Virus record (IMG/VR): IMGVR_UViG_2541047878_000002
Coordinates: 1-42,778 of that record
Reading direction: 5' to 3' (one strand)
DNA: 42,778 nt
Source: a virus
Lineage: Duplodnaviria > Heunggongvirae > Uroviricota > Caudoviricetes
The position numbers were made by a program, and so were the translations under genes. Position 1 is the stretch's first letter; each line of letters opens with the position of its first letter. The notes beneath the pieces are model-generated. The model did no database searches, had not been told where the DNA came from, and was given only the letters and a program-made list of their open reading frames with translations. Positions 9,809 to 26,663 of the stretch are shown here, piece after piece.

Positions 9809-10459
9809 TTATGGAAGGTTTGCTAGTTTTGCATCGACAACTACGCCGATGATTTTGCAGTTTCCGTTGATCTCGATCATCGGATATTGTGGGTTAAGTG
9901 GTTTTAGAAACTTCCTGCCTGCATCAATAACTAACTTCTTGAAAGTTGCCTCGTTTTCTCCTTCGAGCTTTGCAACTACCAGTTTCCCGTTACGCGGCTC
10001 TACTTCAGGATCGACGAGTATTATCATTCCTTCAGGGATACTGAGACCGGCCGGAGCCGTCATTGAGTCTCCCTTCACGTCCAACCAAAACGAATCTTCT
10101 GAACAGTCTACGGTTGTATCGTACCAGTTATCTATTGCACGCTTATGATATGGTTCTACAGCTTCCATCCAGCATCCTGCGCTCACCCAGCTAATCAGAG
10201 GGTATGACCCTCTTGGATCATGCCTACTGTGATAGGCAATGTTTGAAAGACTTTCCTCTCCTTTCATCAGATAGTCAGGGGAACACTTCAACGCATTAGC
10301 CAGGGCGAGAAGATTCTCTCCATTTGGCTCTGTCTCAGAGCGTTCCCACTGAGATATGGCAACATTAGACACGCCGACCATCTTTCCAAGTGCGGCCTGT
10401 CTGATCTTGAGTTCTTTTCTCCGAGCGCGAATGCGCTCTCCCATCAATTGAGTTTTCAT
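9809..10459 (-). CDS. c2: Prophage repressor, P22 C2 type (LexA-like S24 autopeptidase fold)
   Basis: 216 aa, near-identical to recalled P22 C2 (MNTQLMGERIRARRKKLKIRQAALGKMVGVSNVAISQWERSETEPNGENLLAL…); HTH N-domain plus C-terminal S24-like domain. Confidence 0.95.
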   Translation of the reverse strand: MKTQLMGERIRARRKELKIRQAALGKMVGVSNVAISQWERSETEPNGENLLALANALKCSPDYLMKGEESLSNIAYHSRHDPRGSYPLISWVSAGCWMEAVEPYHKRAIDNWYDTTVDCSEDSFWLDVKGDSMTAPAGLSIPEGMIILVDPEVEPRNGKLVVAKLEGENEATFKKLVIDAGRKFLKPLNPQYPMIEINGNCKIIGVVVDAKLANLP

Positions 10460-10539
10460 AGTTAAGACATCTTAAATAAACTTGACTTAAGATTCCTTTA
10501 GTGGATAATTTAAGTGTTCTTTAATTTCGGAGCGAGTCT
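10460..10539. promoter_or_regulatory. OR operators with divergent PRM/PR
   Basis: three 18-bp operators of pattern A(N)TTAAG-N4-CTT(T/A)A(A/G)T at 10460-10477, 10485-10502, 10508-10525; PR -35 TTGACT 10482-10487, -10 GATAAT 10504-10509 (16-bp spacer). Confidence 0.7.
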
Positions 10540-10725
10540 ATGTACAAGAAAGATGTTATCGACCACTTCGGAACCCAGCGTGCTGTAGCTAAAGCGTTAG
10601 GCATTAGCGACGCAGCAGTCTCTCAGTGGAAGGAAGTCATCCCAGAGAAAGACGCCTATCGACTGGAAGTCGTTACAGCTGGCGCCCTGAAGTATCAAGA
10701 AAGCGCTTACCGCAAAGCGGCATAA
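10540..10725 (+). CDS. cro: Cro repressor, P22 type
   Basis: 61 aa MYKKDVIDHFGTQRAVAKALGISDAAVSQWKEVIPEKDAYRLE… matches recalled P22 Cro. Confidence 0.9.
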   Translation: MYKKDVIDHFGTQRAVAKALGISDAAVSQWKEVIPEKDAYRLEVVTAGALKYQESAYRKAA

Positions 10726-10732
10726 GCAAATT

Positions 10733-10774
10733 GCTCTTTAACAGTCATGGTCCTCATTCCCGCCGAAATGCGGG
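10733..10774 (+). promoter_or_regulatory. nutR (boxA gctctttaaca 10733-10743; boxB cccgc-cgaaat-gcggg 10759-10774)
   Basis: identical boxA/boxB to nutL, between cro and cII. Confidence 0.65.
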
Positions 10775-10833
10775 AATACAACGCGCATAAGTTGATGCGC
10801 ATAACTTCTTATTTGTTAAGGAAATACTTACAT

Positions 10834-11127
10834 ATGGTTCGTGCAAACAAACGCAACGAGGCTCTAAGAATCGAGAGTGCGTTGCTTAACAAAATCGCAA
10901 TGCTTGGAACTGAGAAGACAGCGGAAGCTGTTGGAGTTGATAAGTCGCAGATCAGCAGGTGGAAGAGGGACTGGATTCCAAAGTTCTCAATGCTGCTTGC
11001 TGTTCTTGAATGGGGCGTCGTTGACGACGATATGGCTCGATTGGCACGACAAGTTGCTTCGATTCTCACCAACAAAAAACGCCCGGCGGCAACCGAGCGT
11101 TCTGAACAAATCCAAATGGAATTTTAA
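10834..11127 (+). CDS. cII: CII transcriptional activator, lambda type
   Basis: 97 aa MVRANKRNEALRIESALLNKIAMLGTEKTAEAVGVDKSQISRWKRDWIPKF… matches recalled lambda CII; ORF-track entry 10747..11127 trimmed to this ATG. Confidence 0.9.
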   Translation: MVRANKRNEALRIESALLNKIAMLGTEKTAEAVGVDKSQISRWKRDWIPKFSMLLAVLEWGVVDDDMARLARQVASILTNKKRPAATERSEQIQMEF

Positions 11128-11149
11128 TAACATCCAACGAGGTAATTAT

Positions 11150-11422
11150 ATGCGAAACAAAGGCTTTAATCCACCTGATACACACAAAGAAGCTAAGCGT
11201 TTGCGCTTCCTTCGTTCCATTGATGAAAGAACTCAAATCTCTTTTGTGAAAGTTGCCAGAACTGAGCTTCTGAAGGCTGAGGCGAGGGCGTTGCTCCCGT
11301 CCCTACCAAAAGAGGAGGGATATACGTTCATTCCAAACGCATTTCTGGAAAAGCTGCTCAAAGAAGACATATCCGTAAGTCAGTTTAACGATGTTCTTAA
11401 GGTCTTTCGTCAAGGCAGGTAG
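11150..11422 (+). CDS. Hypothetical protein between cII and O
   Basis: 90-aa ORF from ATG 11150 (in-frame internal start of ORF-track entry 10877..11422, which otherwise overlaps cII). Confidence 0.45.
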   Translation: MRNKGFNPPDTHKEAKRLRFLRSIDERTQISFVKVARTELLKAEARALLPSLPKEEGYTFIPNAFLEKLLKEDISVSQFNDVLKVFRQGR

Positions 11423-11424
11423 TT

Positions 11425-12372
11425 ATGAGCAATACAGCAAAAATCTACGATTTCAGCGCCGCACACGAGCGCAGGAGCAACAGGATGGAGAACCAGAAAA
11501 CTGGTTACATTCCGTTGTACCGGAGCATTCTGAAACAGTCATGGGCGAAAGATGTTTATCTTCGCACCCTGTGGGAAAACCTTCTCCTGAATGCCGCCAG
11601 AAAGCCATACAAAGCGAATTTCAAAGGTCATGAATGGCATCTGCAACCCGGTCAACTGGTTGTGACAGCAGCTGATTTAGGTCTTCAGTTATGCGACAGG
11701 CATGGCAAGCCGGCAAGCCGTGATCAGGTTGAGCGGATGCTTCAGGTTTTTGTGAAAGAGGGGATGATCTCCATTGATGGAGAGAAGCAAAAAGGTCGTG
11801 TGATCACCATCACAAATTACCATGAATACGCTCAAAAAATGGACAATTCACCCGCACATGAAGCCGCACAAACAACCGCACATGATGCCGCACATGACGA
11901 AGCCAGCAATGGCGCGGCTTTCAGAGTACATGCCGCACATGAAAGCGCACATGAAGCCGCACAAACAACCGCACATCATGAACAAGAAGGTATTAACAAG
12001 AATATAAATAATACCCCCCTACCCCCCAATGGGGGAGGCGATGGGCAGGTTAAACCTGAACGTCGCAAGGCAGAACGAATCGACTACGAATCCTTCCTGA
12101 ACGCCTACAACACCGAAGTCGGTGACAGACTTCCACACGCTGTTGCGGTCAACGAGAAACGCAAACGCCGCCTGAAGAAAATCATCCCGCAACTGAAAAC
12201 GCCAAACGTGGACGGTTTCAGAGCGTATGTCAGGGCGTTTGTGCATCAGGCCAAGCCGTTTTACTTCGGAGACAACGACACGGGCTGGACAGCTGATTTT
12301 GATTACCTGCTGAGGGAAGATTCGTTAACGGGAGTTCGGGAAGGGAAGTTTGCAGACAGGGGGATTGCATGA
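11425..12372 (+). CDS. Replication initiator (O-like) containing the origin iterons
   Basis: 315 aa; position upstream of DnaB-type helicase; central His/Ala-rich repeats encoded by direct DNA repeats followed by an AT-rich stretch, as in lambda O/ori. Confidence 0.7.
11851..11982 (+). repeat. Origin iteron array inside the O-like gene
   Basis: about 8 direct repeats of roughly 12 bp (consensus CCGCACATGA(A/T)G), followed by AT-rich 11983-12015 and a C6/G5 palindromic element near 12015-12040. Confidence 0.55.
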
Positions 12373-13745
12373 GACAGGATATCGAAGCGAGCGTTATCGG
12401 TGGCCTGCTGATTGGTGGATTAACTCCAACCGCCAGTGACGTTCTGGCAACGCTTGAGCCGGAAGCGTTTTCAATTCCGCTCTACCGGAAAGCCTTCGAG
12501 GTTATCCGCAAGCAGGCGAGAAACAGAAACCTAATCGACGCGCTGATGGTTGCCGAGGCGTGCGGAGAGGAGCATTTCACGTCAATCCTGATGACCAGTA
12601 AGAACTGCCCGAGTGCCGCAAACCTGAAGGGATATGCCGGAATGGTCGCGGATAACTATCACCGCCGTCTGGTGCTGGAAATCATGGATGAAATGCGTGA
12701 ACCAATTCAGAGCGGAACCATCGATACATCGAGTCAGGCGATGGACGAGCTTGTAAAGCGTCTTTCAGCCATCAGAAAGCCCCGTGACGAGGTTAAACCT
12801 GTACGGTTAGGGGAAATCATCACTGACTACACTGACACGCTTGACAGGCGTCTGAGGAACGGAGAAGAGTCCGATACCCTGAAGACCGGAATCGAAGAAC
12901 TTGATGCCATCACCGGAGGGATGAACGCGGAAGACCTGGTGATAATCGCCGCTCGTCCTGGTATGGGGAAAACCGAACTGGCGCTGAAGATTGCCGAAGG
13001 CGTGGCAAGCCGCGTTATTCCTGGTTCTGACGTCCGGCGTGGAGTGTTGATTTTCTCGATGGAAATGAGCGCATTGCAGATTGCAGAGCGAAGCATTGCC
13101 AACGCCGGGAGGATGTCGGTTAGCGTACTGCGAAATCCTGCATCGATGGATGACGAAGGCTGGGCGCGTGTTGCTAACGGCATGAGTCAGCTTGCAGATT
13201 TGGATGTATGGGTAGTCGATGCCTCGCGGTTATCGGTCGAAGAAATTCGCTCAATTGCAGAGCGGCACAAACAGGAAAATCCAAACCTGTCACTCATCAT
13301 GGCGGATTATCTTGGCCTGATTGAGAAGCCGAAAGCAGACCGCAACGACCTCGCAATTGCACACATCTCCGGAAGCCTGAAGGCGATGGCGAAAGACCTG
13401 AAAACACCGGTTATCTCCCTGAGTCAGCTTTCGCGCGATGTTGAGAAGCGACCAAACAAACGCCCGACAAACGCAGATTTGCGTGATTCAGGAAGCATTG
13501 AGCAGGACGCGGACTCAATCATCATGCTCTATCGGGAAGCGGTATATGACGAGAACAGTAGCGCCGCGCCATTTGCTGAAATCATCGTGACGAAAAACCG
13601 TTTTGGCTCACTTGGTACGGTTTACCAGCGGTTCTGCAACGGGCACTTTGTTGCATGTGACCAGGATGAAGCCAGACAGATTTGCACAGCATCAAATGCA
13701 CCTGCTGCGCGTGGCAGACGATATGCACAAGGGGCTGACGTATGA
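12369..13745 (+). CDS. DnaB-family replicative helicase
   Basis: 458 aa with Walker A ([15 protein letters not shown]) and DnaB-like C-terminal domain. Confidence 0.9.
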
Positions 13746-13817
13746 CCATCTACATCACTGAGCTAATAGCAGGCCTGCTGGTAATCGCAGGCCTTTTTAT
13801 TTGGGGGAGAGTAAATC

Positions 13818-14024
13818 GTGGTTAAGTTTATGCTCGTCGCACTCAAATGCGTTGGCGTTGGATGGATTCTTCTGACGTTTTTTATTGTTCTGCATAGCTA
13901 CATTCGTCTTGTGAATGACGGTAAAGACCCATGGTATACGTTGTTTGGCGCTGCATTTGCCTGGGTGATTATCGGTGTTATGCCTGTTGTCGTAGCAAAA
14001 ATGGCGTGGCGTTTTGTGAGTTGA
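13818..14024 (+). CDS. Small membrane protein (2 predicted TM helices)
   Basis: 68-aa hydrophobic ORF with GTG start and GGAGAG SD. Confidence 0.4.
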   Translation: MVKFMLVALKCVGVGWILLTFFIVLHSYIRLVNDGKDPWYTLFGAAFAWVIIGVMPVVVAKMAWRFVS

Positions 14025-14041
14025 ACTGAGGGTAAGTATCG

Positions 14042-14362
14042 ATGGCCGAATCAAGAAAGCAGTTTGAAGAAAGTTGGTTGCGACGTGGAGGCGAATCTTC
14101 AGACCTTATCCGTTACCCTGAAAATCACCATGAAATTGGCAGTGGTGATATTGGTGGTCAATACGTGATGGACGATGTTCAAGGCCACTGGCAAACGTGG
14201 CAGGCATCGCGAGCAGCTATTGAAATAACCGCGCCAAAGTTTATCGACAGCAGAGAAGCATTAGCCAAAGGGTTTACTGTTGATTATTCCAATGGCTTCG
14301 GTGATGCAATGGATGCTTATGAGGAAAACATCCGCGCTGCTGGAGTCAAAGTGAAGGAGTGA
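14042..14362 (+). CDS. Hypothetical nin-region protein
   Basis: 106-aa ORF. Confidence 0.45.
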   Translation: MAESRKQFEESWLRRGGESSDLIRYPENHHEIGSGDIGGQYVMDDVQGHWQTWQASRAAIEITAPKFIDSREALAKGFTVDYSNGFGDAMDAYEENIRAAGVKVKE

Positions 14363-14550
14363 GTATGAGTCGACGAAGTAGCTTTTTGGGGTTTGTAATA
14401 TTCCTGTTCTGCACTGGTTACATCGTAATCTGGTCAGTTTCGAACATTGACCGTGGCGGGGAATATCTCATTGTAATGTTCTTTCCTTTGTTTCTTGGGT
14501 GGTACGCCGCAAGGTTGCTGGAAGAATGGGGTTACAGGCATAAAAAATAA
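14359..14550 (+). CDS. Small membrane protein
   Basis: 63-aa hydrophobic ORF overlapping the previous stop. Confidence 0.4.
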   Translation: MSMSRRSSFLGFVIFLFCTGYIVIWSVSNIDRGGEYLIVMFFPLFLGWYAARLLEEWGYRHKK

Positions 14551-14561
14551 AGGAGTATTCA

Positions 14562-14972
14562 GTGAAGCAAACAATCTTCCTCCGAACTAAGCAACAACAG
14601 CAAGCTGCAATAAATGCCATCCTCGCAACACCACTCGATAAAGACAAGCCAGTCACGATCCACATTACTGACTACAAGCGAAATCTTGACCAGAACGCAA
14701 AATTTCACGCGATGCTGGCGGATATCGCTCGTCAGGTTCAATGGTGCGGAAAATGGTTAAAACCGGAACAATGGAAGGTTTTGTTGATCAGCGGTCATGC
14801 AGTGGCAACAAAGCAGGAAGCTGATGTTTTGCCCGGCCTTGAAGGCGAATACGTCAACATTCGCGAAAGTAGCGCGCAGATGAGTGTGAAGCGTATGGCA
14901 AGTCTGATTGAGTACACGACAGCATGGGCTATTGGTCAGGGTGTCAGATTTACCGACAGGAGGTACGAATGA
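14562..14972 (+). CDS. ninB: NinB-like recombination protein
   Basis: 136 aa; motif [26 protein letters not shown] resembles recalled lambda NinB (…SLDQNRKLWACLGDVSRQVEWHGRWL…). Confidence 0.8.
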
Positions 14973-15151
14973 GACGACAGCGACGAAGTATCACCGACAT
15001 CATCTGCGAAAACTGCAAATACCTTCCAACGAAACGCTCCAGAAATAAACGCAAGCCAATCCCAAAAGAATCTGACGTAAAAACCTTCAATTACACGGCT
15101 CACCTGTGGGATATCCGGTGGCTTAGAGAACGTGCGAGGAAAACAAGGTGA
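14969..15151 (+). CDS. ninE: NinE-like small protein
   Basis: 60 aa [32 protein letters not shown]…; size and position fit NinE; identity from memory. Confidence 0.5.
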
Positions 15152-15318
15152 TTGACCCAAATCGAAGTTACGAACAAGAAAGCGTCGAGCGAGCTTTAAC
15201 GTGCGCTAACTGCGGTCAGAAGCTGCATGTGCTGGAAGTTCACGTTTGCTCCGATTGCTGCGCAGAACTGATGAGCGATCCGAATAGCTCAATGTACGAG
15301 GAAGAAGACGATGAATGA
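15148..15318 (+). CDS. ninF: NinF-like small Cys-rich protein
   Basis: 56 aa from GTG overlapping the ninE stop (GTGA): [48 protein letters not shown]…; translated by hand. Confidence 0.4.
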
Positions 15319-16033
15319 GTTAATAAATGGCAATGCCATCAAAATGACAAGCATTGAAATCGCTGAGTTGGTTGGTAAGCGTCATGACAATGTGAAACGT
15401 ACCATCGAAACGCTGGCTAAAAATGGTGTTATCCGGCTTCCTCAAATTGAGGTTTCCGAAAGAATCAATAACTTAGGGTTCAATGTTCAGTACGAGCATT
15501 ACGTCTTCGAAGGCGAACAAGGTAAGCGCGACAGCATTGTTGTCGTTGCCCAGTTGTCGCCGGAATTCACGGCTCGCCTTGTTGACCGTTGGCGAGAGCT
15601 TGAAGAAGCTGCGGTTAATATCCCAAAAACGCTACCAGAAGCGTTGCGCCTTGCTGCTGACCTTGCTGAGCAGAAAATGCAACTGGAAAACCAGCTCGCA
15701 ATTGCCGCACCTAAAGTTGAGTTTGCCGATCGCGTTGGCGAGGCCAGCGGAATTTTGATTGGAAACTTTGCAAAGGTTGTTGGAATTGGTCCAAACAAAC
15801 TGTTTGCGTGGATGCGCGATCACAAAATCCTTATTGCTTCAGGTTCCCGGCGCAATGTGCCAATGCAGGAATATATGGATCGCGGCTATTTCACAGTGAA
15901 AGAAACAGCGGTCAACACAAATCACGGAATACAGATATCGTTCACCACAAAAATCACCGGGCGTGGTCAACAGTGGCTGACCAGAAAGCTGCTCGATAAC
16001 GGAATGCTGAAAGTAACAGGGGAGGCTGCTTAA
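15311..16033 (+). CDS. Rha-family phage regulatory protein / antirepressor (KilA-C-type C-terminus)
   Basis: 240 aa; N-terminal Rha-like region and C-terminal antirepressor-like region. Confidence 0.7.
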   Translation: MNELINGNAIKMTSIEIAELVGKRHDNVKRTIETLAKNGVIRLPQIEVSERINNLGFNVQYEHYVFEGEQGKRDSIVVVAQLSPEFTARLVDRWRELEEAAVNIPKTLPEALRLAADLAEQKMQLENQLAIAAPKVEFADRVGEASGILIGNFAKVVGIGPNKLFAWMRDHKILIASGSRRNVPMQEYMDRGYFTVKETAVNTNHGIQISFTTKITGRGQQWLTRKLLDNGMLKVTGEAA

Positions 16034-16323
16034 TGGCTAACCTATGCAAAGAAGCACGCGGCAGAGAATGCCAGGTACGTATTTACGGCGTATGCAATGG
16101 CAATCCTGAAACTACAGTTCTGGCACATTACCGGATGGCTGGAATTTGCGGAACGGGAATGAAGCCTGACGACCTGATCGGCGCATGGGCTTGTAGCGCG
16201 TGTCACGATGAAATCGACCGACGCACCCATAACCTCGACAACAAAGACGCCAGACTTTACCACCTCGAAGGCGTAATCAGGACGCAGGCGGTATTGCTGA
16301 AGGAGGGGAAGGTTAAGTCATGA
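16033..16323 (+). CDS. YbcO-like DUF1364 zinc-binding putative nuclease
   Basis: 96 aa MANLCKEARGRECQVRIYGVCNGNPETTVLAH…ACSACHDEIDRR resembles recalled DLP12 YbcO. Confidence 0.6.
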   Translation: MANLCKEARGRECQVRIYGVCNGNPETTVLAHYRMAGICGTGMKPDDLIGAWACSACHDEIDRRTHNLDNKDARLYHLEGVIRTQAVLLKEGKVKS

Positions 16324-16682
16324 ATGAATATCGGTTTGTGCTTCCATACCCGCCGTCGGTGAATACCTACTGGCGAAGAAGGGGAAGCCAATACTACATC
16401 AGCGATAAAGGCCAGAAATACCGAAAAGATGTACAGCAAATAATCCGCCAACTCAAGTTAGACATTTTCACCAAATCACGACTCCGCATCAAAGTCATCG
16501 CAGACGTTCCAGACTCCCGCCGCCGCGACCTCGACAATATCCTGAAAGGTTTACTCGACTCCCTTATCCACGCCGGATTTGCGGAAGACGACGAGCAATT
16601 CGATGACATTCGCGTAATTCGTGGTGTGAAAGTACCAGGCGGACGGCTTGGAATAAAAATCACCGAACTGGAGAACGCATGA
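16320..16682 (+). CDS. rusA: RusA Holliday-junction resolvase
   Basis: 120 aa with RusA signature …DVPDSRRRDLDNILKGLLDSL…. Confidence 0.85.
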   Translation: MNEYRFVLPYPPSVNTYWRRRGSQYYISDKGQKYRKDVQQIIRQLKLDIFTKSRLRIKVIADVPDSRRRDLDNILKGLLDSLIHAGFAEDDEQFDDIRVIRGVKVPGGRLGIKITELENA

Positions 16683-16867
16683 ACGCCACAATTCAAACGA
16701 TACCAGAGCTTCTTATCCAGACACGAGGCAATCAGACCGAAGTGGCGAGGATGCTTTCCTGCGCAAGAGGAACAGTGCTCAAGTACAACCGAGACAGCAA
16801 AGGTGAGCGTCACATAATAGTTAACGGCGTCCTGATGGTAACGCCAGGAAAAAAGGGAAGGCGATGA
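16679..16867 (+). CDS. ninH: NinH-like protein
   Basis: 62 aa; …GNQTEVARMLSCARGTVLKY… resembles recalled lambda NinH (…GNQTEVARRLKCSRGTVRKY…). Confidence 0.65.
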   Translation: MNATIQTIPELLIQTRGNQTEVARMLSCARGTVLKYNRDSKGERHIIVNGVLMVTPGKKGRR

Positions 16868-17382
16868 GCATAAGAGAACTAAACCTCACCAAAGAACAGC
16901 ACGATTGGCTGAATGGCTGGCTTGAACTGTGGGGCGCATGGGTTTATTCAGGTCGCCTGGAAAAGCGTATGAGCAGCGTAATAGCGAAGTTCATGGAGAG
17001 CGTAGAGCCGGGAAGAGTTATGACAAGGCCAATGTGCAATGATGATGATGGAATGTTGATTTCTCAGGTCGTCGATTCCGTCATGTACATTGACAAGAAA
17101 GCCTTTGGCATCCTCCTCAGCTACTACGCTCATGGTTCATCTAAGCGAGCAATTGCATCCTACTATCACGCGACTGCAAAGCCACGCAAGATGTGTGGAC
17201 GTGGTGGCGAGGGATGGAGAAAACCTTCACTGGCAACCTGTAGAAACGAAATTGACGACATCCTGAAGGCGTCATTATTTGTTTTATACCAGCCAATGCA
17301 AAATGCTTTCAAAATGCGTAAACGTGTTGAGAAAGTTAAGCATGTTGCTGTTAAAAGCCTTGACATGCAATTAGCCATTTAG
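16864..17382 (+). CDS. Putative late-gene antiterminator Q
   Basis: 172-aa Cys-containing protein immediately upstream of a consensus late promoter and the lysis cassette; positional call, family not confirmed. Confidence 0.55.
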   Translation: MSIRELNLTKEQHDWLNGWLELWGAWVYSGRLEKRMSSVIAKFMESVEPGRVMTRPMCNDDDGMLISQVVDSVMYIDKKAFGILLSYYAHGSSKRAIASYYHATAKPRKMCGRGGEGWRKPSLATCRNEIDDILKASLFVLYQPMQNAFKMRKRVEKVKHVAVKSLDMQLAI

Positions 17383-17389
17383 CCATAAT
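17360..17389 (+). promoter_or_regulatory. Candidate late promoter pR'
   Basis: -35 TTGACA (17360-17365), 18-bp spacer, -10 CATAAT (17384-17389), overlapping the 3' end of the Q-like gene. Confidence 0.45.
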
Positions 17390-17403
17390 TAGAGGGTAAG
17401 CTG

Positions 17404-17441
17404 CCGTTAGTGACTCTTAAGTTGCAACGGTGGCTTTTTTT
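17404..17441 (+). terminator. Possible tR'-like terminator
   Basis: ccgtt…gttgcaac…aacgg pairing followed by ggc + T7 run (17435-17441); structure is imperfect. Confidence 0.3.
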
Positions 17442-17445
17442 ATTT

Positions 17446-17520
17446 GGGTCAGTCGTATAAAGGTCATTACGGAAGGCTGTTAACCTTCTTATCGTGGTTC
17501 GAGTCCACGCTGTCCCGCCA
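17446..17520 (+). tRNA. tRNA-like gene, anticodon GUU (Asn), CCA encoded
   Basis: hand-folded cloverleaf: acceptor GGGTCAG/CTGTCCC (one U-U mismatch), D-loop with GG, anticodon stem gaagg/ccttc with loop cuGUUaa, T-arm cgtgg-TTCGAGT-ccacg, discriminator G + CCA. Confidence 0.55.
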
Positions 17521-17525
17521 AACAT

Positions 17526-17601
17526 GCTGGTTTAGCTCCAATGGTAGAGCGGTCGCCTTGTAAGCGAATGGGTAGCGGTTCAAGTCCGTTAACCAGCACC
17601 A
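17526..17601 (+). tRNA. tRNA-like gene, anticodon UGU (Thr), CCA encoded
   Basis: hand-folded cloverleaf: acceptor GCTGGTT/AACCAGC (7/7), D-arm TAGCTCCAATGGTAGAGC, anticodon loop cuUGUaa, T-arm agcgg-TTCAAGT-ccgtt, discriminator A + CCA. Confidence 0.6.
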
Positions 17602-17718
17602 TAACTGAGCCGTAGCCACTGGCTATCATGAATTCCTCAGTGATAGTTACGCTGCGGCCTTCTTTTTCCCCTTCCTAATACAAGAACTACGCAATCCGTT
17701 ACTGGCGGAGGCGTTGCT

Positions 17719-17934
17719 ATGAAATCCATGGATAAGATAACAACGGGTGTCGCCTATGGCACCTCGGCAGGCAGTGCCGGGTACTGGTTTTTACAGTGGC
17801 TTGATCAGGTCAGTCCATCACAGTGGGCTGCTATTGGTGTGCTGGGAAGTCTGGTTCTGGGCTTCCTGACTTATCTGACAAATCTGTACTTCAAAATCAG
17901 AGAAGACAAGCGTAAGGCTGCGAGAGGTGAATAA
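17719..17934 (+). CDS. S: Pinholin, phage 21 S21 type (dual-start MKSM motif)
   Basis: 71 aa [63 protein letters not shown]… matches recalled S21. Confidence 0.85.
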
Positions 17935-18431
17935 TGTCGCCATCATTACGCAAGGCTGTTGCAGCTGCTATTGGTGGTGGGGCTATTGCCATAGCGTCTA
18001 TGCTCATCACTGGCCCAAGTGGTAACGATGGTCTGGAAGGTGTCAGTTACATACCATACAAAGATATCGTTGGCGTATGGACTGTATGTCACGGACACAC
18101 CGGAAAAGACATTATGCTCGGTAAAACGTATACCGAAGCAGAATGCAAAGCCCTCCTGAATAAAGACCTTGCCACTGTCGCCAGACAAATTAACCCGTAC
18201 ATCAAAGTCGATATACCGGAAACAACGCGCGGCGCTCTTTACTCATTCGTTTACAACGTGGGTGCTGGCAATTTCAGAACATCGACGCTTCTGCGCAAAA
18301 TCAACCAGGGCGATATCAAAGGCGCATGTGATCAGCTACGTCGCTGGACATACGCTGGCGGTAAGCAATGGAAAGGTCTGATGACTCGTCGTGAGATTGA
18401 GCGTGAAATCTGTTTGTGGGGTCAGCAATGA
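17934..18431 (+). CDS. R: SAR endolysin (lysozyme with N-terminal signal-anchor-release domain), R21 type
   Basis: 165 aa; Gly/Ala-rich weakly hydrophobic N-terminus [20 protein letters not shown] followed by a lysozyme-like domain. Confidence 0.85.
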
Positions 18432-18519
18432 ACATGATTTGCTTTTTCATGGCAGCGTTGCTCGCATTGAATGGCAACGATGCGTGGCCGTGGTTTCTGG
18501 CCGTGGGGGTGTTGATGTC

Positions 18520-18987
18520 ATGAGTCGGTTAACCGCGATTATCTCCGCTCTGGTTATCTGCATCATCGTTTGCCTGTCATGGGCTGTTAATCATTACCGT
18601 GATAACGCCATTACCTACAAAGCCCAGCGCGATAAAAAAGTCAGTGAGCTGAAGCAGGCGACTGCCACCATTACTGACATGCAGCAGCGCCAGCGTTCTG
18701 CTGATGCACTCGATGCTAAATACACGAAGGAGTTAGCTGATGCGAAAGCTGAAAATGATGCTCTTCGGCGCAGGCTTGATAATGGTGGTCGGGTGTTCGT
18801 CAAAGGAAAATGCCCTGTGCCATCCTCAGCCGAAACCTCCAGCGCCTCCGGCATGGGCAATGATGCCACCGTCGAACTCTCTCCAGTTGCTGGACGAAAC
18901 GTTCTCGGTATCCGGGACGGAATTATCCGCGACCAAACAGCACTGAGAACGCTTCAGGAATACATCAGGACGCAATGCCTTCGATGA
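18520..18987 (+). CDS. Rz: Rz i-spanin
   Basis: N-terminal TM helix then coiled-coil periplasmic domain; start at ATG 18520 within ORF-track entry 18391..18987. Confidence 0.75.
18740..18946 (+). CDS. Rz1: Rz1 o-spanin lipoprotein nested in the +1 frame of Rz
   Basis: 68 aa with signal peptide and lipobox (LIMVVGCSS), Pro-rich mature part, entirely embedded within Rz. Confidence 0.75.
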
Positions 18988-19161
18988 TAGCGATAATTTT
19001 ACTCATCATCCTTCACATCTGGCTCTGTAGACAGGATGGTGATCACTTCTGGAGTGAATCCAGATTAAACATCTCATTGCTGATGCTTGATATTGAGCAT
19101 CTGGCGCGCGGTAAGGGGCTGCGTTGAGATAAGAGCCAGTCATTACAAATACCAGGATTTA

Positions 19162-19186
19162 GCCTCGCATTTGCGGGGTTTTTTAT
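19162..19186 (+). terminator. Intrinsic terminator after the lysis cassette
   Basis: cctcgc-attt-gcgggg hairpin followed by TTTTTTAT. Confidence 0.4.
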
Positions 19187-19208
19187 TCCCAACTCCATAG
19201 GTAATTTT

Positions 19209-19688
19209 ATGACCCAGCATATTGGCGTAAAACTGATTAACGCCTTTCCGATGACGAGACAGGCATATAACGATTTTCGTGGCTGGCAGCTTCCTGCCGG
19301 AGAAAACGGCGAGGATGAAGGCTATCTGGTTGAATATCTGGATGGCGGAAAACCTAACACCGATCGCTTTGATGGCTACGTTAGCTGGAGTCCAAAAGAA
19401 GTATTCGAAAAGGCTTATCGTCCTGTATCAGGGCTAAGTTTCGGTCTGGCCATGGAAGCGTTAAAACAGGGAAAGAGTTTGCAGCGGGCAGGATGGAATG
19501 GGAAAGACCAGTTTGTTTATCTCGTGAAAGGGGAAAAATTAGCGTCTGCGTTGGGTTATGGCTTTGGCGAATATGTTGGCGAGCCAACTTTCAATGACAC
19601 GCTTGTATTGAAAAACTCACAGAACCGCCTTGCTACATGGGGTCCATCCATTGGCGACCTGATGGCTGAAGACTGGCAAATCATTTAA
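19209..19688 (+). CDS. Hypothetical protein (159 aa); C-terminal half possibly DUF2829-like
   Basis: ORF between lysis and packaging modules; C-terminal segment …FGLAMEALKQGKSLQRAGWNGKDQFVYLV…LATWGPSIGDLMAEDWQII; family link is tentative recollection. Confidence 0.5.
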   Translation: MTQHIGVKLINAFPMTRQAYNDFRGWQLPAGENGEDEGYLVEYLDGGKPNTDRFDGYVSWSPKEVFEKAYRPVSGLSFGLAMEALKQGKSLQRAGWNGKDQFVYLVKGEKLASALGYGFGEYVGEPTFNDTLVLKNSQNRLATWGPSIGDLMAEDWQII

Positions 19689-19990
19689 CCGTGTAGGCAT
19701 TACAAAGCCTATCTACGGGTGGGCTTGATAATGAAACCGGAATTTATTCTTGGCAACCAGTTACGGCAGTACCACGAAGCAACCCAAGCCAGTAAGTGGG
19801 GAAATAACACTGGCAGCCACTGAAAGATGAACCTCCTGCCTTATGGCAAAAAAGATTCTTTGTGGTGGCGGACTGATGGAAAGACATCGGTTATTGCAGA
19901 GGCCATTCAATGAATGGTCTCGACAATGGCTTATACCATACACGGGATAACTTAACTGATATCCCTTTCAACGGATAAACGGAGCCAACA

Positions 19991-20233
19991 ATGGCAGAGA
20001 TTATTCCCATGACTGAAGAACAGAAATTCCAGTTAGAGATTTACAAACTGGTCATGAACCAGAACGCAGCTGCAGAGGAAGCATTTCAGTTCATTGGCAC
20101 TGACGAACTGAAGCTTGAGCTATTCAAAATTCACTTCCAGTCAGGCGGCGCTAATTCGGATATCACGACCCGCACTATCGAAGCGGTGCGTAAATCGAAG
20201 GAAGCGTTAGACCTGTTCACCACCGGAGCATGA
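19991..20233 (+). CDS. Hypothetical protein upstream of terminase
   Basis: 80-aa ORF with GGAG SD. Confidence 0.45.
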   Translation: MAEIIPMTEEQKFQLEIYKLVMNQNAAAEEAFQFIGTDELKLELFKIHFQSGGANSDITTRTIEAVRKSKEALDLFTTGA

Positions 20234-20262
20234 TGCTCAACCTGAAATAACAACTAAGTGAG

Positions 20263-20757
20263 ATGAATATGGCAGCACCAAAGGGCAACCGATTTTGGGA
20301 GGCCCGCAGTAGTCATGGGCGAAATCCTAAATTCGAATCGCCTGAGGCGCTGTGGGCTGCTTGTTGTGAATACTTCGAGTGGGTGGAAGCTAACCCGCTA
20401 TGGGAGATGAAGGCGTTCTCGTATCAGGGTGAAGTGATACAAGAGCCTATCGCCAAGATGCGAGCGATGACCATTACCGGACTCACTCTGTTCATTGATG
20501 TGACGCTTGAAACATGGCGCACATATCGCCTGCGAGAAGATTTATCTGAAGTCGTTACGCGAGCAGAGCAGGTCATCTACGATCAGAAATTCTCTGGCGC
20601 AGCCGCTGACCTTCTCAACGCTAACATCATCGCCCGTGATTTGGGCCTCAAAGAGCAGTCGCAAGTTGAAGACGTGACACCTGATAAGGGAGATCGCGAT
20701 AAGCGGCGCTCTCGTATCAAGGAGCTATTCAACCGTGGAACTGGACGCGATTCTTGA
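20263..20757 (+). CDS. Terminase small subunit, P22 gp3 type
   Basis: matches recalled P22 gp3 ([47 protein letters not shown]…); likely true start is the ATG at 20269; contains the pac site. Confidence 0.85.
20536..20557 (+). other. Candidate P22-type pac site within the terS gene
   Basis: GAAGATTTATCTGAAGTCGTTA matches my recollection of the 22-bp P22 pac sequence. Confidence 0.5.
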
Positions 20758-22234
20758 TAACCTGAGCGACGAAGAGCAAATCGAATTGCTCGAGCTACTC
20801 GAAGAAGAAGAGAGCTACCGGAACACACACCTGCTATATGAATTTACGCCATACAGCAAACAGCGTGAGTTCATCGACGCCGGGCATGACTATCCAGAGC
20901 GCTGTTTTATGGCTGGTAACCAGCTTGGTAAGTCATTTACTGGTGCTGCTGAAGTCGCGTTTCACCTTACCGGGCGTTATCCGGGCACAAAAGGCTATCC
21001 TGCTGATGGTAAATATGGCGGGGAGTGGAAAGGTAAGCGTTTCTATGAGCCTGTTGTCTTCTGGATTGGCGGCGAGACAAACGAGACGGTAACCAAAACG
21101 ACTCAACGCATCCTGTGCGGTCGTATTGAAGAGAATGATGAACCGGGCTACGGTTCAATACCGAAAGAGGACATCATTAGCTGGAAGAAGTCTCCTTTCT
21201 TTCCGAACCTTGTTGATCATCTTCTGGTTAAGCATCACACGGTTGATGGCGTTGAAGATGGCATTTCAATCTGCTACTTCAAGCCATACTCGCAAGGCCG
21301 TGCTCGCTGGCAGGGTGACACAATCCACGGCGTGTGGTTTGACGAAGAGCCACCATACAGCATTTATGGCGAAGGTCTTACCCGTACCAACAAATACGGG
21401 CAATTCTCAATTCTGACGTTTACCCCGCTGATGGGGATGTCTGACGTTGTTACCAAGTTCCTGAAGAATCCCAGCAAGTCGCAGAAAGTGGTCAACATGA
21501 CCATCTATGACGCTGAGCACTACACCGACGAGCAGAAAGAGCAAATCATCGCATCCTATCCTGAGCATGAGAGAGAGGCGCGTGCTCGCGGTATTCCTAC
21601 GATGGGTAGCGGGCGAATCTTCCAGATACCGGAAGAGACGATTAAGTGTCAGCCGTTTGAGTGTCCTGATCACTTCTACGTAATTGGCGGGATGGATTTC
21701 GGATGGGATCACCCGCAGGCGCAGGTTCAGCTTTGGTGGGATAAGGACGCAGACACAATCTACGTTTCACGCGTGTGGAAGGCGAAAGAAAAAACAGCCG
21801 TTCAGGCGTGGGGAGCCGTTAAATCATGGGCGCATAAAGTGCCAACCGCATGGCCTCATGACGGAAACCAGCATGAGAAGGGCGGCGGTGAGCAGCTCAA
21901 AGGGCAGTATGCAGATGCTGGATTTATGATGTTGCAGGAGCATGCGACATGGCCTGATGGCGGTAATGCTGTTGAGCCTGGAATCACTGAATTGCGAGAC
22001 ATGATGCTCGACGGTCGCTTCAAAGTATTCAACACCTGTGAGCCATTCTTTGAGGAGTTCCGTCTCTATCACCGTGATGAAAACGGGAAAATCGTCAAGC
22101 TTAACGACGACGTGCTCTCCGCCGTTCGCTATGCATACATGATGCGCCGCTTCGCCAAAATGATGCGCGACATCAAAAAACCAAAAGAGAAAAAGATACC
22201 AGCCCCAATCAGGCCCATCGCACGGAGAACTTAA
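20735..22234 (+). CDS. Terminase large subunit, P22 gp2 type
   Basis: 499 aa, GTG start overlapping terS end; N-terminus [26 protein letters not shown]… as recalled for P22 gp2. Confidence 0.9.
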
Positions 22235-24400
22235 ATGGCCGACGAAAACAGACTCAATTCCATTCTGTGCAAGTTTGACGCGGACTGGATGGCGAGCGAT
22301 GAAGCCAGAACCGAGGCGACAAATGACCTGTATTTTAGCCGAGTGTCGCAATGGGATGACTGGCTATCAAACTACACCACCCTGCAATATCGCGGACAAT
22401 TCGATGTTGTTCGCCCGGTGGTCAGGAAACTGGTCGCAGAGATGCGCCGGAACCCTATCGACGTTCTCTTCCGACCCAAAGACGGTGCTAATCCTGATGC
22501 AGCCGATGTGTTGATGGGGATGTATCGTACTGATATGCGCCATAACACGGCAAAGATTGCCGTTAACGTTGGCGTTCGTGAGCAGATAGAGTCCGGCGTT
22601 GGTGCATGGCGTCTGGTCACCCAGTACGAAGACAACGACCCAACAAGCAACAATCAGGTAATCCGACGCCTGCCAATCCATGAAGCCTGCTCACACGTCA
22701 TATGGGACGCCAACAGCAAGCAGATGGATAAGAGCGACGCTAAGCACTGCACGGTGATTAACGCTTTGTCACGCAATGGCTGGAAAGAGTTCGCAGAGGA
22801 TTACGGTATTGATCCTGACACCCTGCCATCTTTCCAGAATCCTAACGATACATGGCTATTCCCGTGGGTATCGAATGATGTCGTCTACGTCGCTGAGTAT
22901 TACGAGGTAGAAGAGAAGAAGGAGAAAGTCTTCATCTACCGCGACCCGCTGACAGGTGAGCCGGTCAGCTATTACCAGAAGGATATCAAAGACGTCATCG
23001 ACGACCTGGCTAATCGTGGATTCATTAAGGTAGCAGAGCGTAAGGTCAAGCGTCGTCGTGTGTATAAGTCGATCATCACCTGCACGCAGATACTGAAAGA
23101 CCGCGAGAAGATAGCAGGAGAGCATATTCCAATCGTTCCAGTGTATGGTGAATGGTCATTCGCTGGTGACAAGGAGTGCTACGAAGGAGTGGTAAGGCTG
23201 ACGAAAGACGGTCAACGCCTTCGTAACATGATCATGTCATTCAACGCCGATATCGTTGCTCGTTCACCGAAGAAGAAACCGACCTTCTTCCCTGAGCAAA
23301 TCGAAGGATACGAATACATGTACGGAGGAAATGATGACTATCCGTACTATCTGCAGAACAAGACCGATGAAAACGGTAACGACCTGCCGATTGGTCCAAT
23401 CTCCTACATGGAAAACCCTGAAGTGCCGCAAGCCAACGCTTACATGCTTGAGGCTGCCACCAACGCAGTGAAAGAGGTAGCTAGTCTTGGCGTGGATGCG
23501 CAGGCGGCAAATGGTCAGGTCGCTTTCGATACCGTCAATCAACTGAACATGCGGGCAGACCTTGAGACATACGTGTTTCAGGATAACCTGGCTACCGCAA
23601 TGCGACGTGATGGCGAGATTTATGCCTCAATGGTCAACGATATTTATGACGTTCCTCGCCATGTAACGCTGACTCTTGAAGACGGAAGCGAGAAAGACGT
23701 TCAACTCTACGCGCAAGTTGTAGATTACCAGTCCGGTAATGTGGTCACACTCAACGACATTCGCGGTCGCTATGAGTGCTATACAGACGTTGGGCCATCC
23801 TTCCAGAGCATGAAGGAACAGAACCGCGCAGAGATTCAGGAGTTACTAACCAAGGTTCCGCAAGGTACTCCAGAGTTCCAGATGCTGATGCTGCAATACT
23901 TCACGCTGCTTGACGGTAAAGGCGTCGAGATGATGCGAGAGTACGCGAACAAGCAACTGGTGATGATGGGGCTGAAGAAACCAGAAACACCTGAAGAGAT
24001 GGAGATGGTGCAGCAGGCACAACAACAGCCGCAGCAGCCATCAGCAGAGCAAATTCAGGCGCAGGGCATCCTTCTGCAAGGTCAGGCTGAATTGCTCAAG
24101 GCAGAGAACCAACAGGCGCAGATTCAGGTTGAAGCTGCCAAGGTTGAAGCCCAGAACCAACTCAACGCCGCGAAGATTGCAGAAATCTTCAACAATATGG
24201 ACCTCGACAAGCAGGCAGAACTGCGTGAGTACCTCAAGCTCGTAGGTCAATTCCAGCAACAGCGCAGCAAAGATGCTCGTGCTAACGCTGAGCTGCTTCT
24301 TAAAGATGCAGACCAGACTCATTCACAACGCATGGATTTCGCGAATCTTATGCGTCAAGTTCAAATCCCCTCCGGCGGAGTAGCCGAGACACCTCAATAA
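22235..24400 (+). CDS. Portal protein, P22 gp1 type
   Basis: 721 aa, extensive similarity to recalled P22 gp1 including the C-terminal Gln-rich barrel region. Confidence 0.9.
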
Positions 24401-24413
24401 GAGAGAGTTAATC

Positions 24414-25325
24414 ATGGACCAAACCACCGACATTCAGGCTTCTGAAGAATTAACCCTGCCTGGCAATCATGCAGCGGCATCTGCTGATGGCTTAGTTGTC
24501 GATAATGCCAACGACAACGCAGGTCAGGAAGAAGGCTTCGAGATTGTCCTGAAAGACGATGAGAAACCAAAACAAGACCCGGCAACTAATGCTGAATTTG
24601 CCCGTCGCCGCATCGAACGCAAACGCCAGCGTGAGCTTGAGCAGCAGATGGAAGCGGTTAAGCGTGGAGAGTTGCCGGAGCACCTGCGGGTGAACCCTGA
24701 GTTACCAAAACAACCAGACCCTAACGATTATCTTTCCGAAGATGCACTGGCTAAGTACGACTATGACCAGAGCCGCGCACTGGCTGCCTTCCAGCAGGCA
24801 AACAGTGAATGGCAGATCAAGGCTATGGACGCACGAAGCCAGGCTGTCGCCGAGCAGGGTCGCAAAACTCAGGAGTTCACCCAGCAATCAGCGCAATACG
24901 TCGAGGCAGCCCGTAAGCACTACGACGCAGCGGAAAAGCTCAATATCCCTGACTATCAGGAGAAAGAGGATGCATTCATGCAACTGGTGCCGCCAGCAGT
25001 CGGTGCCGACATCATGCGCCTCTTCCCGGAGAAATCCGCCGCTCTCATGTATCACCTTGGTGCTAATCCTGAGAAAACACGCCAGTTGCTGGCGATGGAC
25101 GGGCAATCCGCGCTGATTGAACTCACTCGACTGTCAGAACGTTTAACTCTCAAGCCTCGAGCCAAACCTGTTTCAGAAGCCCCGCTACCTGATGAACCCA
25201 TTCATGGACACGCTGTTGCTGCAAATATATCTGCGATTGAAAAGCAGATGGAAGCGGCAGCAAACAAAGGGGATGTAGAGACATACCGCAAGCTCAAGGC
25301 GCAACTGAATAAAGGAATTCGATAA
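24414..25325 (+). CDS. Scaffolding protein, P22 gp8 type
   Basis: 303 aa, close match to recalled P22 gp8 (…[30 protein letters not shown]…[11 protein letters not shown]…). Confidence 0.85.
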
Positions 25326-26620
25326 TGGCATTAAATGAAGGTCAACTGGTCACGTATGCTCTGGATGAAATCATCGAAACCGTCCAGAACCTGACGCCAA
25401 TGGCGTCCAAAGTGACAAAATACACCCCTCCGGCAGAATCCATGCAGCGTTCAAGCAACACCGTGTGGATGCCTGTTGAGCAGGAAGCGCCAACTCAGAC
25501 TGGCTGGGATTTAACTGGCAACGCTACCGGGATTCTGGAACTCTCCGTGAAATGCAACATGGGCGATCCGGATAACGATTTCTTCGAACTTCGTGCAGAT
25601 GACCTGCGTGATGAGCGTTCTTACCGTCGCCGCATCCAGGCATCCGCCAAAAAACTGGCGAATAACATTGAGTCAGCGATTGCCAAACAGGCAACTGAAA
25701 TGGGCTCGCTTGTTGTTCACGATACCCGCGCAATTGGTCCATCTACTGGCCTGTCTGGCTGGGATTTTGTGTCTGATGCAGAGCGCCTGATGTTCTCCCG
25801 TGAGCTAAACCGCGACATGGGCATCAGTTACTTCCTGAACCCTGACGATTACCGCAAAGCAGGCCGCAACCTGGTAGATGGTGACATCTTTGGGCGCGTT
25901 CCTGAAGAAGCGTATCGCAACGGTACTATTCAGCGTCAGATTGCTGGCTTTGATGAAATTCTTCGCTCACCGAAACTTCCGGCAGTTACCAAGTCAACCG
26001 CGACTGGTGTAACTGTTTCTGGTGCGCAGAAGTTTAAGCCGCAGGCATACACCCTTGATACCGATGGTAACAAAGAGAACGTCGACAACCGTGTTGCAAC
26101 GGTGACCGTATCCTCCACCACCGGATTTAAGCGCGGCGACAAAATCAGCTTCACTGGTGTGAAATTCCTGTCTCAGATGGCGAAGAACGTGCTGACTGAT
26201 GATGCTACTTTCTCAATCACCCGCGTGATCGATAGTACTCACATCGAAATCACGCCGAAGCCGATTGCACTGGATGACGCGTCACTGACAAAAGAAGAGA
26301 AGGCTTACGCTAACGTAAACACCTCTCTTGCTGAGACCACTCCGGTAAACGTTCTGAACGTGGCAACAACAACCGCTAACGTGTTCTGGGCTGATGACTC
26401 AATCCGTCTGCTGTCTCAGCCGATCCCGGTAACCCATGAACTGTTTGCTGGCATGAAAACGTCTTCCTTCAGCATTCCTGGTATTGGTGTTAACGGCATC
26501 TTCGCAACGCAGGGTGATATCAACACTCTGTCTGGTAAGTGCCGTATTGCTGTGTGGTATTCAGCATGTGCTGTACGACCAGAGGCAATTGGTGTTGGTC
26601 TGCCTAACCAGACCGCGTGA
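25325..26620 (+). CDS. Major coat protein, P22 gp5 type
   Basis: 431 aa, close match to recalled P22 gp5 (MALNEGQ…VGLPGQTA-like C-terminus). Confidence 0.9.
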
Positions 26621-26663
26621 TAACCAGAGGGAGCTTCTGCTCCCTTTTCTATTGGAGATACCA

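Follow-up and report, generated by a model that had tools for sequence, protein, structure and literature searches.

An Asn–Thr tRNA gene cassette in the late leader of a P22-like prophage and its likely role as a source of nuclease-resistant replacement tRNAs

Two tRNA genes between the late terminator and the lysis genes

The window, by which we mean the whole 42,778-nt stretch of viral DNA analysed here, is a P22-like prophage whose best phage record is HZ41 (96.5% identity over 73% of positions 10000-30000). ARAGORN called exactly two tRNA genes in these 42.8 kb, a tRNA-Asn and a tRNA-Thr, and both were matched over their full length by the Rfam family RF00005 (gathering score 29; E-values computed for the whole window). 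A preliminary description of this DNA had proposed two such genes, each with an encoded CCA, between the late promoter pR' with its terminator tR' and the lysis genes. The pair was recovered by both tools at the same coordinates with scores far above threshold, CCA could be read at the end of both genes, and the promoter, the tR' hairpin and the holin gene were all located around them (Table 1).

Table 1 Features of the late leader and its neighbours in the window
Feature	Position	Strand	Evidence
Q21-family late antiterminator gene, 172 aa	16864-17382	+	phmmer vs 6jnx/6p18, E 2e-91; Pfam Phage_antitermQ PF06530, 90 bits
Late promoter pR'	17360-17389	+	-35 TTGACA 17360-17365; -10 CATAAT 17384-17389; 11/12 consensus matches
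Intrinsic terminator tR'	17400-17445	+	stem 17400-17434, U-tract 17435-17445; -21.1 kcal/mol, z = -4.0 vs shuffles
tRNA-Asn, anticodon GUU (17479-17481)	17446-17520	+	ARAGORN; Rfam RF00005, 55.3 bits, E 2.3e-09
Spacer AACAT, 5 nt	17521-17525		
tRNA-Thr, anticodon UGU (17559-17561)	17526-17601	+	ARAGORN; Rfam RF00005, 61.2 bits, E 5.5e-11
Hairpin and T-rich run CTTCTTTTTCCCC	17609-17671	+	hairpin 17609-17658, -25.7 kcal/mol, z = -4.75, 0/200 shuffles as stable
S21-type pinholin/antiholin gene, 71 aa	17719-17934	+	Pfam Phage_holin_2_1 'Bacteriophage P21 holin S', 121.6 bits; aligns with phage 21 S21-71/68
Endolysin gene, phage lysozyme family	17934-18431	+	Pfam Phage_lysozyme, 155.6 bits; phage 21 homologue annotated as SAR endolysin

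The anticodon arms read GAAGG/CUGUUAA/CCUUC in tRNA-Asn and GUCGC/CUUGUAA/GCGAA in tRNA-Thr, with canonical loops of 7 nt carrying U33 and a purine at position 37. Both D loops hold G18-G19, and the two T arms (GGTTCGAGTCC and GGTTCAAGTCC) agree with the T-loop pattern GGTTCRANTCC. AsnRS recognises the GUU anticodon together with G73, and ThrRS recognises G1-C72, C2-G71, G35 and U36. By sequence, tRNA-Asn carries the former set, including the discriminator G73, and tRNA-Thr the latter. Aminoacylation and decoding by the window tRNAs are predicted from these identity elements; the published rescue of ACA decoding refers to a tRNA-Thr allele with A at nt 26 only, where the window has G (17551).

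The antiterminator gene, whose 3' end overlaps pR', encodes a protein almost identical to the Q21 structures over residues 1-102 and diverged over residues 103-162. The pR' hexamers lie 18 nt apart and enclose the direct repeats AATTAGCC/ATTTAGCC (17369-17384), at the position of the Q-binding element (QBE) of phage 21. These repeats equal those of Sf6 and differ from the phage 21 QBE, ATTGAGCA/AATGAGCA. The promoter aligns with the annotated pR' of both phages and, judged by the aligned start site annotated in phage 21, transcription would begin near 17396. The last base of tR' directly precedes tRNA-Asn, so transcripts terminated there contain no tRNA. The tR' sequence is that of the annotated phage 21 terminator (whose record cites PMID 1704887), and the Sf6 version has a U-tract one T shorter and is otherwise identical.

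Downstream of the tRNA genes, the hairpin at 17609-17658 is kept in phage 21 and Sf6, and the T-run behind it occurs in S21-type junctions only. A permissive RNA-family scan of 17330-17760 returned nothing beyond the two tRNAs, and no Rfam match was obtained there for the 17609-17671 hairpin. When a terminator role was sought, the consensus scan was silent and the hairpin variants were without clear compensatory changes. The hairpin may serve to process or stabilise the RNA, or may act as a weak second terminator at the S21-type junction. The S21-type pinholin gene that follows opens the protein-coding part of the late operon. The prophage end adjoins the host gene ybhC about 16 kb from the cassette, and on this ground the tRNAs were rejected as integration site or attP.

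A conserved and horizontally mobile cassette

A 421-bp query around the cassette matched 94 phage records, many of which annotate tRNA-Asn and tRNA-Thr at this place (Sf6, BTP1, SPN9CC, vB_SosS_Oslo, Bas106 and phage 21 among them). The order pR', qut/QBE, tR', tRNA-Asn, tRNA-Thr is annotated in the curated Sf6 and phage 21 records; the Sf6 record was deposited in the early 2000s. The preliminary description had named phage tRNAs at this position as known in some lambdoid phages, such as Stx phages, and this was borne out, by the same pair in phage 21 and Sf6 and by some Stx-converting phages among the matches to the query. The 156-bp pair was present in 369 of 5,426 complete E. coli genomes, where it is annotated as tRNA genes, and the NCBI pipeline annotates the cassette in hundreds of E. 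coli prophages. E. coli E2348/69 carries a 100% identical pair in a prophage whose virion module is wholly different.

A three-way alignment of the window, phage 21 and Sf6 showed tRNA-Asn to be identical at 75/75 positions, the 5-nt spacer to be unchanged and tRNA-Thr to agree at 75/76. The sole difference is nt 26 of tRNA-Thr, which is A in phage 21 and Sf6. We further examined 120 IMG/VR contigs chosen by an exact match to the tRNA-Asn 3' end. Both genes occurred together in 108 of the 120 contigs. tRNA-Asn was identical in 104 of 118 copies, a figure that holds for its first 50 nt, the last 25 being set by the search pattern. Of 110 tRNA-Thr copies, 64 had the phage 21 allele and 16 the G26 allele of the window; the G26 allele is therefore common in nature. 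tR' was linked to the tRNAs in 93/119 contigs and the downstream hairpin was found in 106/120. The flanking parts were rarer: of 119 contigs, only about 35-44 had the window-type promoter/QBE and about 27-29 an S21-type lysis region. These counts mark tR', tRNA-Asn, tRNA-Thr and the hairpin as the mobile unit, bounded by a mosaic junction at either end; that on the right comes immediately past ...GCGGCCTTCT, in the last part of the unit. These results indicate that the cassette is a conserved, horizontally mobile module, already known from phage 21, Sf6 and many prophages.

Comparison with individual phages illustrates this mosaic. Phage 21 (OL657228) has the same sequence as the window in tR', tRNA-Asn, the spacer, the downstream hairpin and the S21 holin junction. 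It also shares the tRNA-Thr anticodon arm (GUCGC/GCGAA, with G27·A43 and, relative to the host, C28U/G42A), and its Q belongs to the same structural family. Besides nt 26, it differs in its promoter/QBE repeats and in the C-terminal third of Q, from which a different Q specificity is predicted, and its virion genes are λ-like where those of the window are P22-like. Conversely, Sf6, BTP1, SPN9CC, Bas106 and the HK620 group have a Q/QBE type like that of the window along with pR', tR', both tRNAs and the hairpin; the group is 97-98.6% identical to the window's cassette region over 364 bp and is likewise P22-like. Past the hairpin, however, Sf6 has a λ S-type holin cassette and the window the S21 cassette of phage 21. 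The BTP1 prophage is 97.5% identical to the query over the common 364 bp. In the transcriptome of the BTP1 lysogen, the two tRNA genes are listed apart from five protein genes with TPM >100, and the lytic operon is described as starting directly after them (PMC7067206).

Other phages carry other tRNA combinations in the same place. In 933W-like Stx phages, the tRNA genes ileZ-argN-argO lie downstream of Q and pR'. As in the window, they sit in a late leader under Q control, here ahead of the late, lysis and stx genes; unlike the window, they encode Ile and Arg rare-codon tRNAs and stand under another Q type. In phage L and ST64T, a tRNA-Asn(GUU) and a 'tRNA-Leu(UAA)' have been described at the position of the window pair (PMC8022706). 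Two contigs taken as this type (L075 and L124) have the Asn 3' end and the AACAT spacer of the window. Their second gene retains the acceptor and T arms of tRNA-Thr and G27·A43, but its anticodon arm is rewritten (UAA anticodon, C33) and ARAGORN does not call it.

Nuclease recognition and codon demand

The P2 OLD Toprim nuclease blocks phage λ by making two cuts in the anticodon stem of the host tRNA-Thr(UGU) (Govande et al. 2025, PMC12445682). Its target is a paired CNG motif at nt 28-30 and 40-42 of that tRNA, and host Asn(GUU), Lys(UUU) and Val(UAC) are also cut, more slowly (PMC12445682). Only phage tRNA-Thr(UGU) species give rescue, whereas overexpressed host tRNA-ThrU gives no protection (PMC12445682). 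The phage 21 tRNA-Thr ('tRNA-Thr21') protects cells from OLD and resists cleavage, as shown with a plasmid-borne gene outside its native late leader and with transcripts made in vitro; its resistance needs both the C28U/G42A motif change and a shorter anticodon stem, and tRNA-ThrU was not protected by the motif change alone (PMC12445682). This published function, evasion of the P2 OLD tRNA nuclease, had been missed by the preliminary description.

A second nuclease, AriB of the PARIS system, has host Lys(UUU), Thr(UGU) and Asn(GUU) as its main targets (Belukhina et al. 2025, PMC12409363). Cleavage falls between nt 40 and nt 41, beside a common U36-A-A-U39 motif; it is abolished by U39A and lowered by A41C and U16C (PMC12409363). 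PARIS is neutralised by the T5 Lys, Thr and Asn tRNAs together, and phage T4, which has its own tRNA-Thr(UGU), still needed supplied T5 tRNA-Lys(UUU) to escape (PMC12409363). The anticodons of the window match targets of both nucleases: OLD has UGU as its prime target, for AriB it is a major one, and GUU is a secondary AriB target that OLD also cleaves. The chance that two random species of about 40 both fall within the three main AriB targets is about 0.4%, a figure that, as post hoc arithmetic, is a lead and not a test.

We compared the nucleotides concerned between the window tRNAs and their host counterparts (Table 2). U39 is lost in both window tRNAs, U16 has become A16, and the C28/G42 combination is gone. 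By this comparison, both lack every published OLD and AriB recognition determinant that the host tRNAs keep. G27·A43 of tRNA-Thr is the shortened anticodon stem that the OLD study tied to resistance. tRNA-Asn retains a full 5-bp anticodon stem, with the motif change and without the stem shortening, and so has one of the two OLD-resistance features. By analogy with phage 21, the G26 tRNA-Thr of the window is expected to be equivalent to the A26 allele in charging, decoding, OLD resistance and rescue, and the altered motifs of the cassette tRNA-Asn suggest that it too may have a protective role against nucleases.

Table 2 Nuclease recognition positions in host and window tRNAs
tRNA	nt 28-30	nt 40-42	nt 36-41	nt 16	nt 27-43
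Host thrU	CUG	CAG	UAAUCA	U	A-U
Window tRNA-Thr	UCG	CGA	UAAGCG	A	G·A mismatch
Host asnT	CGG	CCG	UAAUCC	U	G·U wobble
Window tRNA-Asn	AAG	CUU	UAACCU	A	G-C

The T5 tRNAs provide a parallel. Two of the three T5 anticodons (Thr, Asn and Lys) are shared with the window and the overall sequences are unrelated, yet in all three the host U39 is replaced as in the window (G39 stands there in the Thr and Asn tRNAs of T5), and disruption of the C28...G42 motif is likewise seen. T5 differs in being virulent and in expressing 24-25 tRNAs from its own promoters, and the window has no tRNA-Lys. Lacking a tRNA-Lys(UUU), the prime AriB target, the cassette would probably be insufficient against the B185 PARIS system, and any protection from AriB by the window tRNAs is unlikely to be complete.

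We consider it probable that the cassette supplies nuclease-resistant replacement tRNAs for late translation, expressed under Q control, with codon supply as a secondary benefit. RNA polymerase starting from the constitutive pR' would halt at tR', one base short of tRNA-Asn. Polymerase modified by the Q21-family protein would pass tR' and make a late transcript with both tRNAs in its 5' part, and leak through tR' may add to their expression. Host enzymes are expected to mature them, RNase P at the 5' ends and RNase E with 3' exonucleases at the 3' ends. The mature tRNAs would decode ACA (Thr) and AAC/AAU (Asn). Because their anticodon stems and D loops differ where P2 OLD and AriB recognise the host tRNAs, the phage copies would outlast those of the host and sustain late-protein synthesis once the nucleases have destroyed the latter; an added tRNA reading the scarce ACA codon would also benefit an ACA-rich phage.

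Several observations temper this reading. From their position behind tR', the tRNAs may come late relative to nuclease activation by early proteins. The λ Gam-type RecBCD inhibitor is a known OLD trigger, and none was found in the ten early-left ORFs of at least 90 aa that were scanned; the nearest candidate was annotated 'Mu Gam-like' in PHROGs and Sipho_Gp157 in Pfam, which leaves a trigger link unsupported. No explicit OLD sensitivity is given in the BASEL paper for Bas106, a phage with the cassette, and in the literature searched no paper tied the cassette tRNA-Asn to nuclease evasion. The loss of the host motifs could also reflect ancestry in another lineage rather than selection.

Codon demand was examined as the principal alternative (Table 3). 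The preliminary description had suggested that the tRNAs compensate for the codon usage of late genes. This stood for ACA, at 18.0 per 1000 codons in the late genes against 9.7 and 2.9 in the two host sets; for Asn the effect was modest, with AAC making up just 52% of the Asn codons over the late genes. The coat gene is an exception, with AAC in 22 of 24 Asn codons. E. coli has no UGU tRNA other than tRNA-ThrU (PMC12445682). Together with the ACA enrichment, this makes the phage unusually dependent on a single host reader of ACA, and both a benefit from extra tRNA-Thr and a vulnerability to the loss of tRNA-ThrU become plausible. For Asn, the host has several genes (asnT/U/V/W), so that this tRNA is unlikely to be limiting and the case for extra supply is weak.

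Table 3 ACA and Asn codons in phage and host gene sets
Gene set	ACA per 1000 codons	ACA share of Thr codons	Asn per 1000 codons
Window, 16 late genes	18.0	28%	54
Window, 16 early genes	14.7	31%	43
K-12, 21 ordinary genes	9.7	21%	41
K-12, 30 ribosomal/EF genes	2.9	5%	34

On these numbers one could hold that the tRNAs merely top up the host pool for late proteins rich in ACA and Asn codons, and that their sequence differences are without function. The late-gene shares of ACA and of Asn codons exceed those of both host sets, the coat gene strongly prefers AAC, the host has one UGU tRNA gene, and the phage L paper argued along the same lines (PMC8022706). However, the early genes, translated before Q-dependent expression of the tRNAs, are almost equally ACA-enriched, the overall AAC preference is slight, and the several host tRNA-Asn genes make an Asn shortage improbable. 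Moreover, the sequence differences do matter where this has been assayed, since host tRNA-ThrU fails against OLD on overexpression and phage tRNAs succeed, and supply alone leaves the invariance of G27·A43 in 19 natural tRNA-Thr alleles unexplained. We therefore regard supply as the whole explanation as unlikely.

A structural role for the RNA was given far less weight. The tRNA folds might serve chiefly as RNase P and RNase E signals that cut the leader, with tR', off the late mRNA, decoding being incidental. The operon is indeed very long and has them in its 5' untranslated leader, and the conserved hairpin that follows them ahead of the mosaic junction (z = -4.75) could cap the new 5' end. 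But many lambdoid late operons, those of λ and P22 included, function without tRNAs at this place, the anticodons and identity elements are strictly conserved, and tRNA-Thr21 acts by anticodon class, with rescue limited to UGU tRNAs. Such processing as the main role is very improbable.

Irregular positions and the meaning of the cassette

The two cloverleaves contain non-canonical positions. Those listed in the preliminary description, a U-U pair in the Asn acceptor stem and C14 and a G-A pair in tRNA-Thr, are really present: tRNA-Asn has U4·U69, and in tRNA-Thr the D loop carries C14 and G27·A43 (17552/17568) tops the anticodon stem. The D stem of tRNA-Asn also has U13·U22, which cmscan marked as well. 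The U8-A14 tertiary pair is present in tRNA-Asn (A14) and absent in tRNA-Thr, where C14 is replaced by U14 in 8 natural copies.

We used 19 natural tRNA-Thr alleles to follow the pairing. By cloverleaf pair counts, 94.2% of the cells across these alleles were paired, and compensatory changes on both sides were seen at two pairs, 5-68 (GC to UA) and 49-65 (AU to GC). The covariation score was reached by 1 of 500 shuffles, and slid-partner controls were only 22-48% paired. G27·A43 was invariant (19/19) and, being repaired in none of the alleles, is taken as a fixed feature. tRNA-Asn varies too little for a covariation test, with its 3' 25 nt fixed by the search pattern. Minimum free energy (MFE) folds of the single naked tRNAs were weak relative to shuffles (z -1.7 and -1.5), and that of tRNA-Thr was not the cloverleaf; these folds were set aside since tRNA identity rests on the covariance model and covariation. 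In vivo, ACA decoding is rescued by the phage 21 tRNA-Thr, in which C14 and the G·A pair are likewise present (PMC12445682), and so C14 is no argument against function.

The notion that the genes are tRNA-like relics, with U4·U69, C14 and G27·A43 as marks of erosion, is scarcely credible: it would account for the non-canonical pairs, a C at the near-universal A14, MFE folds close to shuffles and the loss of the ARAGORN call for the second gene in some related cassettes, but the covariance-model scores are about twice the threshold, the pair is nearly identical over 120 viral contigs, 94 phage records and 369 E. coli genomes, the changes among alleles are compensatory, and for tRNA-Thr the published function of a phage 21 allele with the same 'defects' contradicts a relic. 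The earlier hint of divergence or decay was not sustained, given the 104 of 118 identical tRNA-Asn copies, the compensatory changes around an invariant G27·A43 in tRNA-Thr, and the active phage 21 allele. The window tRNA-Asn and tRNA-Thr are real tRNA genes and very probably functional.

Within the reading of the pair as nuclease-resistant replacement tRNAs, a more specific and tentative proposal, which we hold to be possible although on balance doubtful, is that Asn and Thr are paired by more than accident, as a dedicated countermeasure by which temperate lambdoid phages meet the OLD-family Toprim nucleases of competing P2/P4 elements, enzymes such as P2 OLD, PARIS AriB and their relatives that act on the anticodon stem. 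If this is true, tRNA-Asn would be a resistant stand-in for a second-line nuclease target, adding to the protection by tRNA-Thr. Since pR' is constitutive and tRNAs are stable, lysogens could hold a standing pool of resistant tRNAs through leak at tR', and such a pool would alter the response of lysogens to abortive-infection nucleases.

The cassette itself is already known, and the function of its tRNA-Thr was published in 2025 for the phage 21 allele, which is one base different. The part with some novelty is the suggested link between the cassette tRNA-Asn and nuclease evasion, which is drawn from the recognition positions in its sequence. What the analysis adds for this prophage is that it is marked as a carrier of an anti-defence tRNA against P2 OLD, and that its odd base pairs are functional features and not damage. 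It also offers a testable extension, in which the companion tRNA-Asn would be a nuclease-resistant replacement, its motifs being changed and its host counterpart being hit by both AriB and OLD. If this is true for tRNA-Asn, small tRNA cassettes of temperate phages could become readable as fingerprints of the nucleases that they face.

Prophage position and the Q protein

The P22-like prophage of the window is located in the λ attachment region, since the host gene ybhC lies at the window's left end. Coverage of the window's first 25 kb was 75% at most in every complete E. coli genome compared. In the early-left operon, the protein encoded beside the RecT-like annealase is labeled 'Mu Gam-like end protection' by PHROGs, whereas Pfam assigns it to Sipho_Gp157; no homologue of λ Gam was seen among the ten early-left ORFs scanned.

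The repeats between the -35 and -10 elements of the late promoter pR' are AATTAGCC/ATTTAGCC, in contrast to ATTGAGCA/AATGAGCA in the Q-binding element (QBE) of phage 21. The window Q departs from Q21 only past residue 102, in the region reported to contact the QBE. The window Q thus looks like a Q21-family antiterminator with altered DNA specificity, one that Sf6 shares.

Coordinates of the features described (window positions unless a contig is named)
Feature	Coordinates	Strand	Remarks
Host gene ybhC	1-1284	-	Left end of the window
RecT-like annealase and adjacent Gam-like/Gp157 protein	5932-6420 and 6398-7309	both -	Early-left operon
Q gene	16864-17382		
pR' repeats	17369-17384		Between -35 and -10
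Conserved, very stable hairpin	17609-17671		Between tRNA-Thr and lysis genes; z = -4.75
HNH endonuclease gene	L126:19434-19946		Inserted between Q and tRNA-Asn; E. coli E2348/69 prophage
Chimeric second gene	L092:1359-1434	+ (as oriented)	Also in L030, L066, L082, L093, L011, L065 and L074

Flanks of the tRNA cassette

The E2348/69 prophage (L126) carries a tRNA pair 100% identical to that of the window, but its virion module is wholly different and non-P22-like. The sequence of the leader terminator tR' is absent directly upstream of tRNA-Asn in this prophage, as in about 25 of 119 viral contigs. On the other side of the cassette, a mosaic junction falls exactly at the end of the hairpin. The hairpin had no family match in Rfam, and a T-run comes after it only where it is joined to the phage 21-type S21 pinholin/lysis cassette.

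The gene following tRNA-Asn

The cassettes of contigs L075 and L124 were taken to be of the phage L/ST64T type, whose second gene is a tRNA-Leu by tRNAscan-based annotation (PMC8022706). In both contigs this gene, uncalled by ARAGORN, retains the acceptor arm, T arm and G27·A43 mismatch of tRNA-Thr, and its anticodon arm is rewritten (loop CCUAAGA, anticodon UAA, C33). ThrRS-type identity pairs are present in its acceptor stem, so the amino acid with which it is charged may not be the one that the tRNA-Leu annotation implies.

The second gene, directly after the Asn gene, is chimeric in 8 of 120 viral contigs: nucleotides 1-25 are those of the phage tRNA-Thr and 26-76 are host-thrU-like. In seven of the eight, the anticodon stem has UCAUC on its 3' side (G42U, U43C), with loss of two base pairs and of the 3' CNG, part of the paired motif in host tRNA-Thr cut by the P2 OLD nuclease; ARAGORN made no tRNA call for these seven. 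A host-glyT-like tRNA-Gly(UCC) lies 3 nt downstream of the chimera. The host operon has the order thrU-tyrU-glyT-thrT, and tyrU is therefore missing from the chimeric cassette. The succession of a thrU-like chimera and a glyT-like gene suggests recombination between the tRNA cassette and the host thrU operon.
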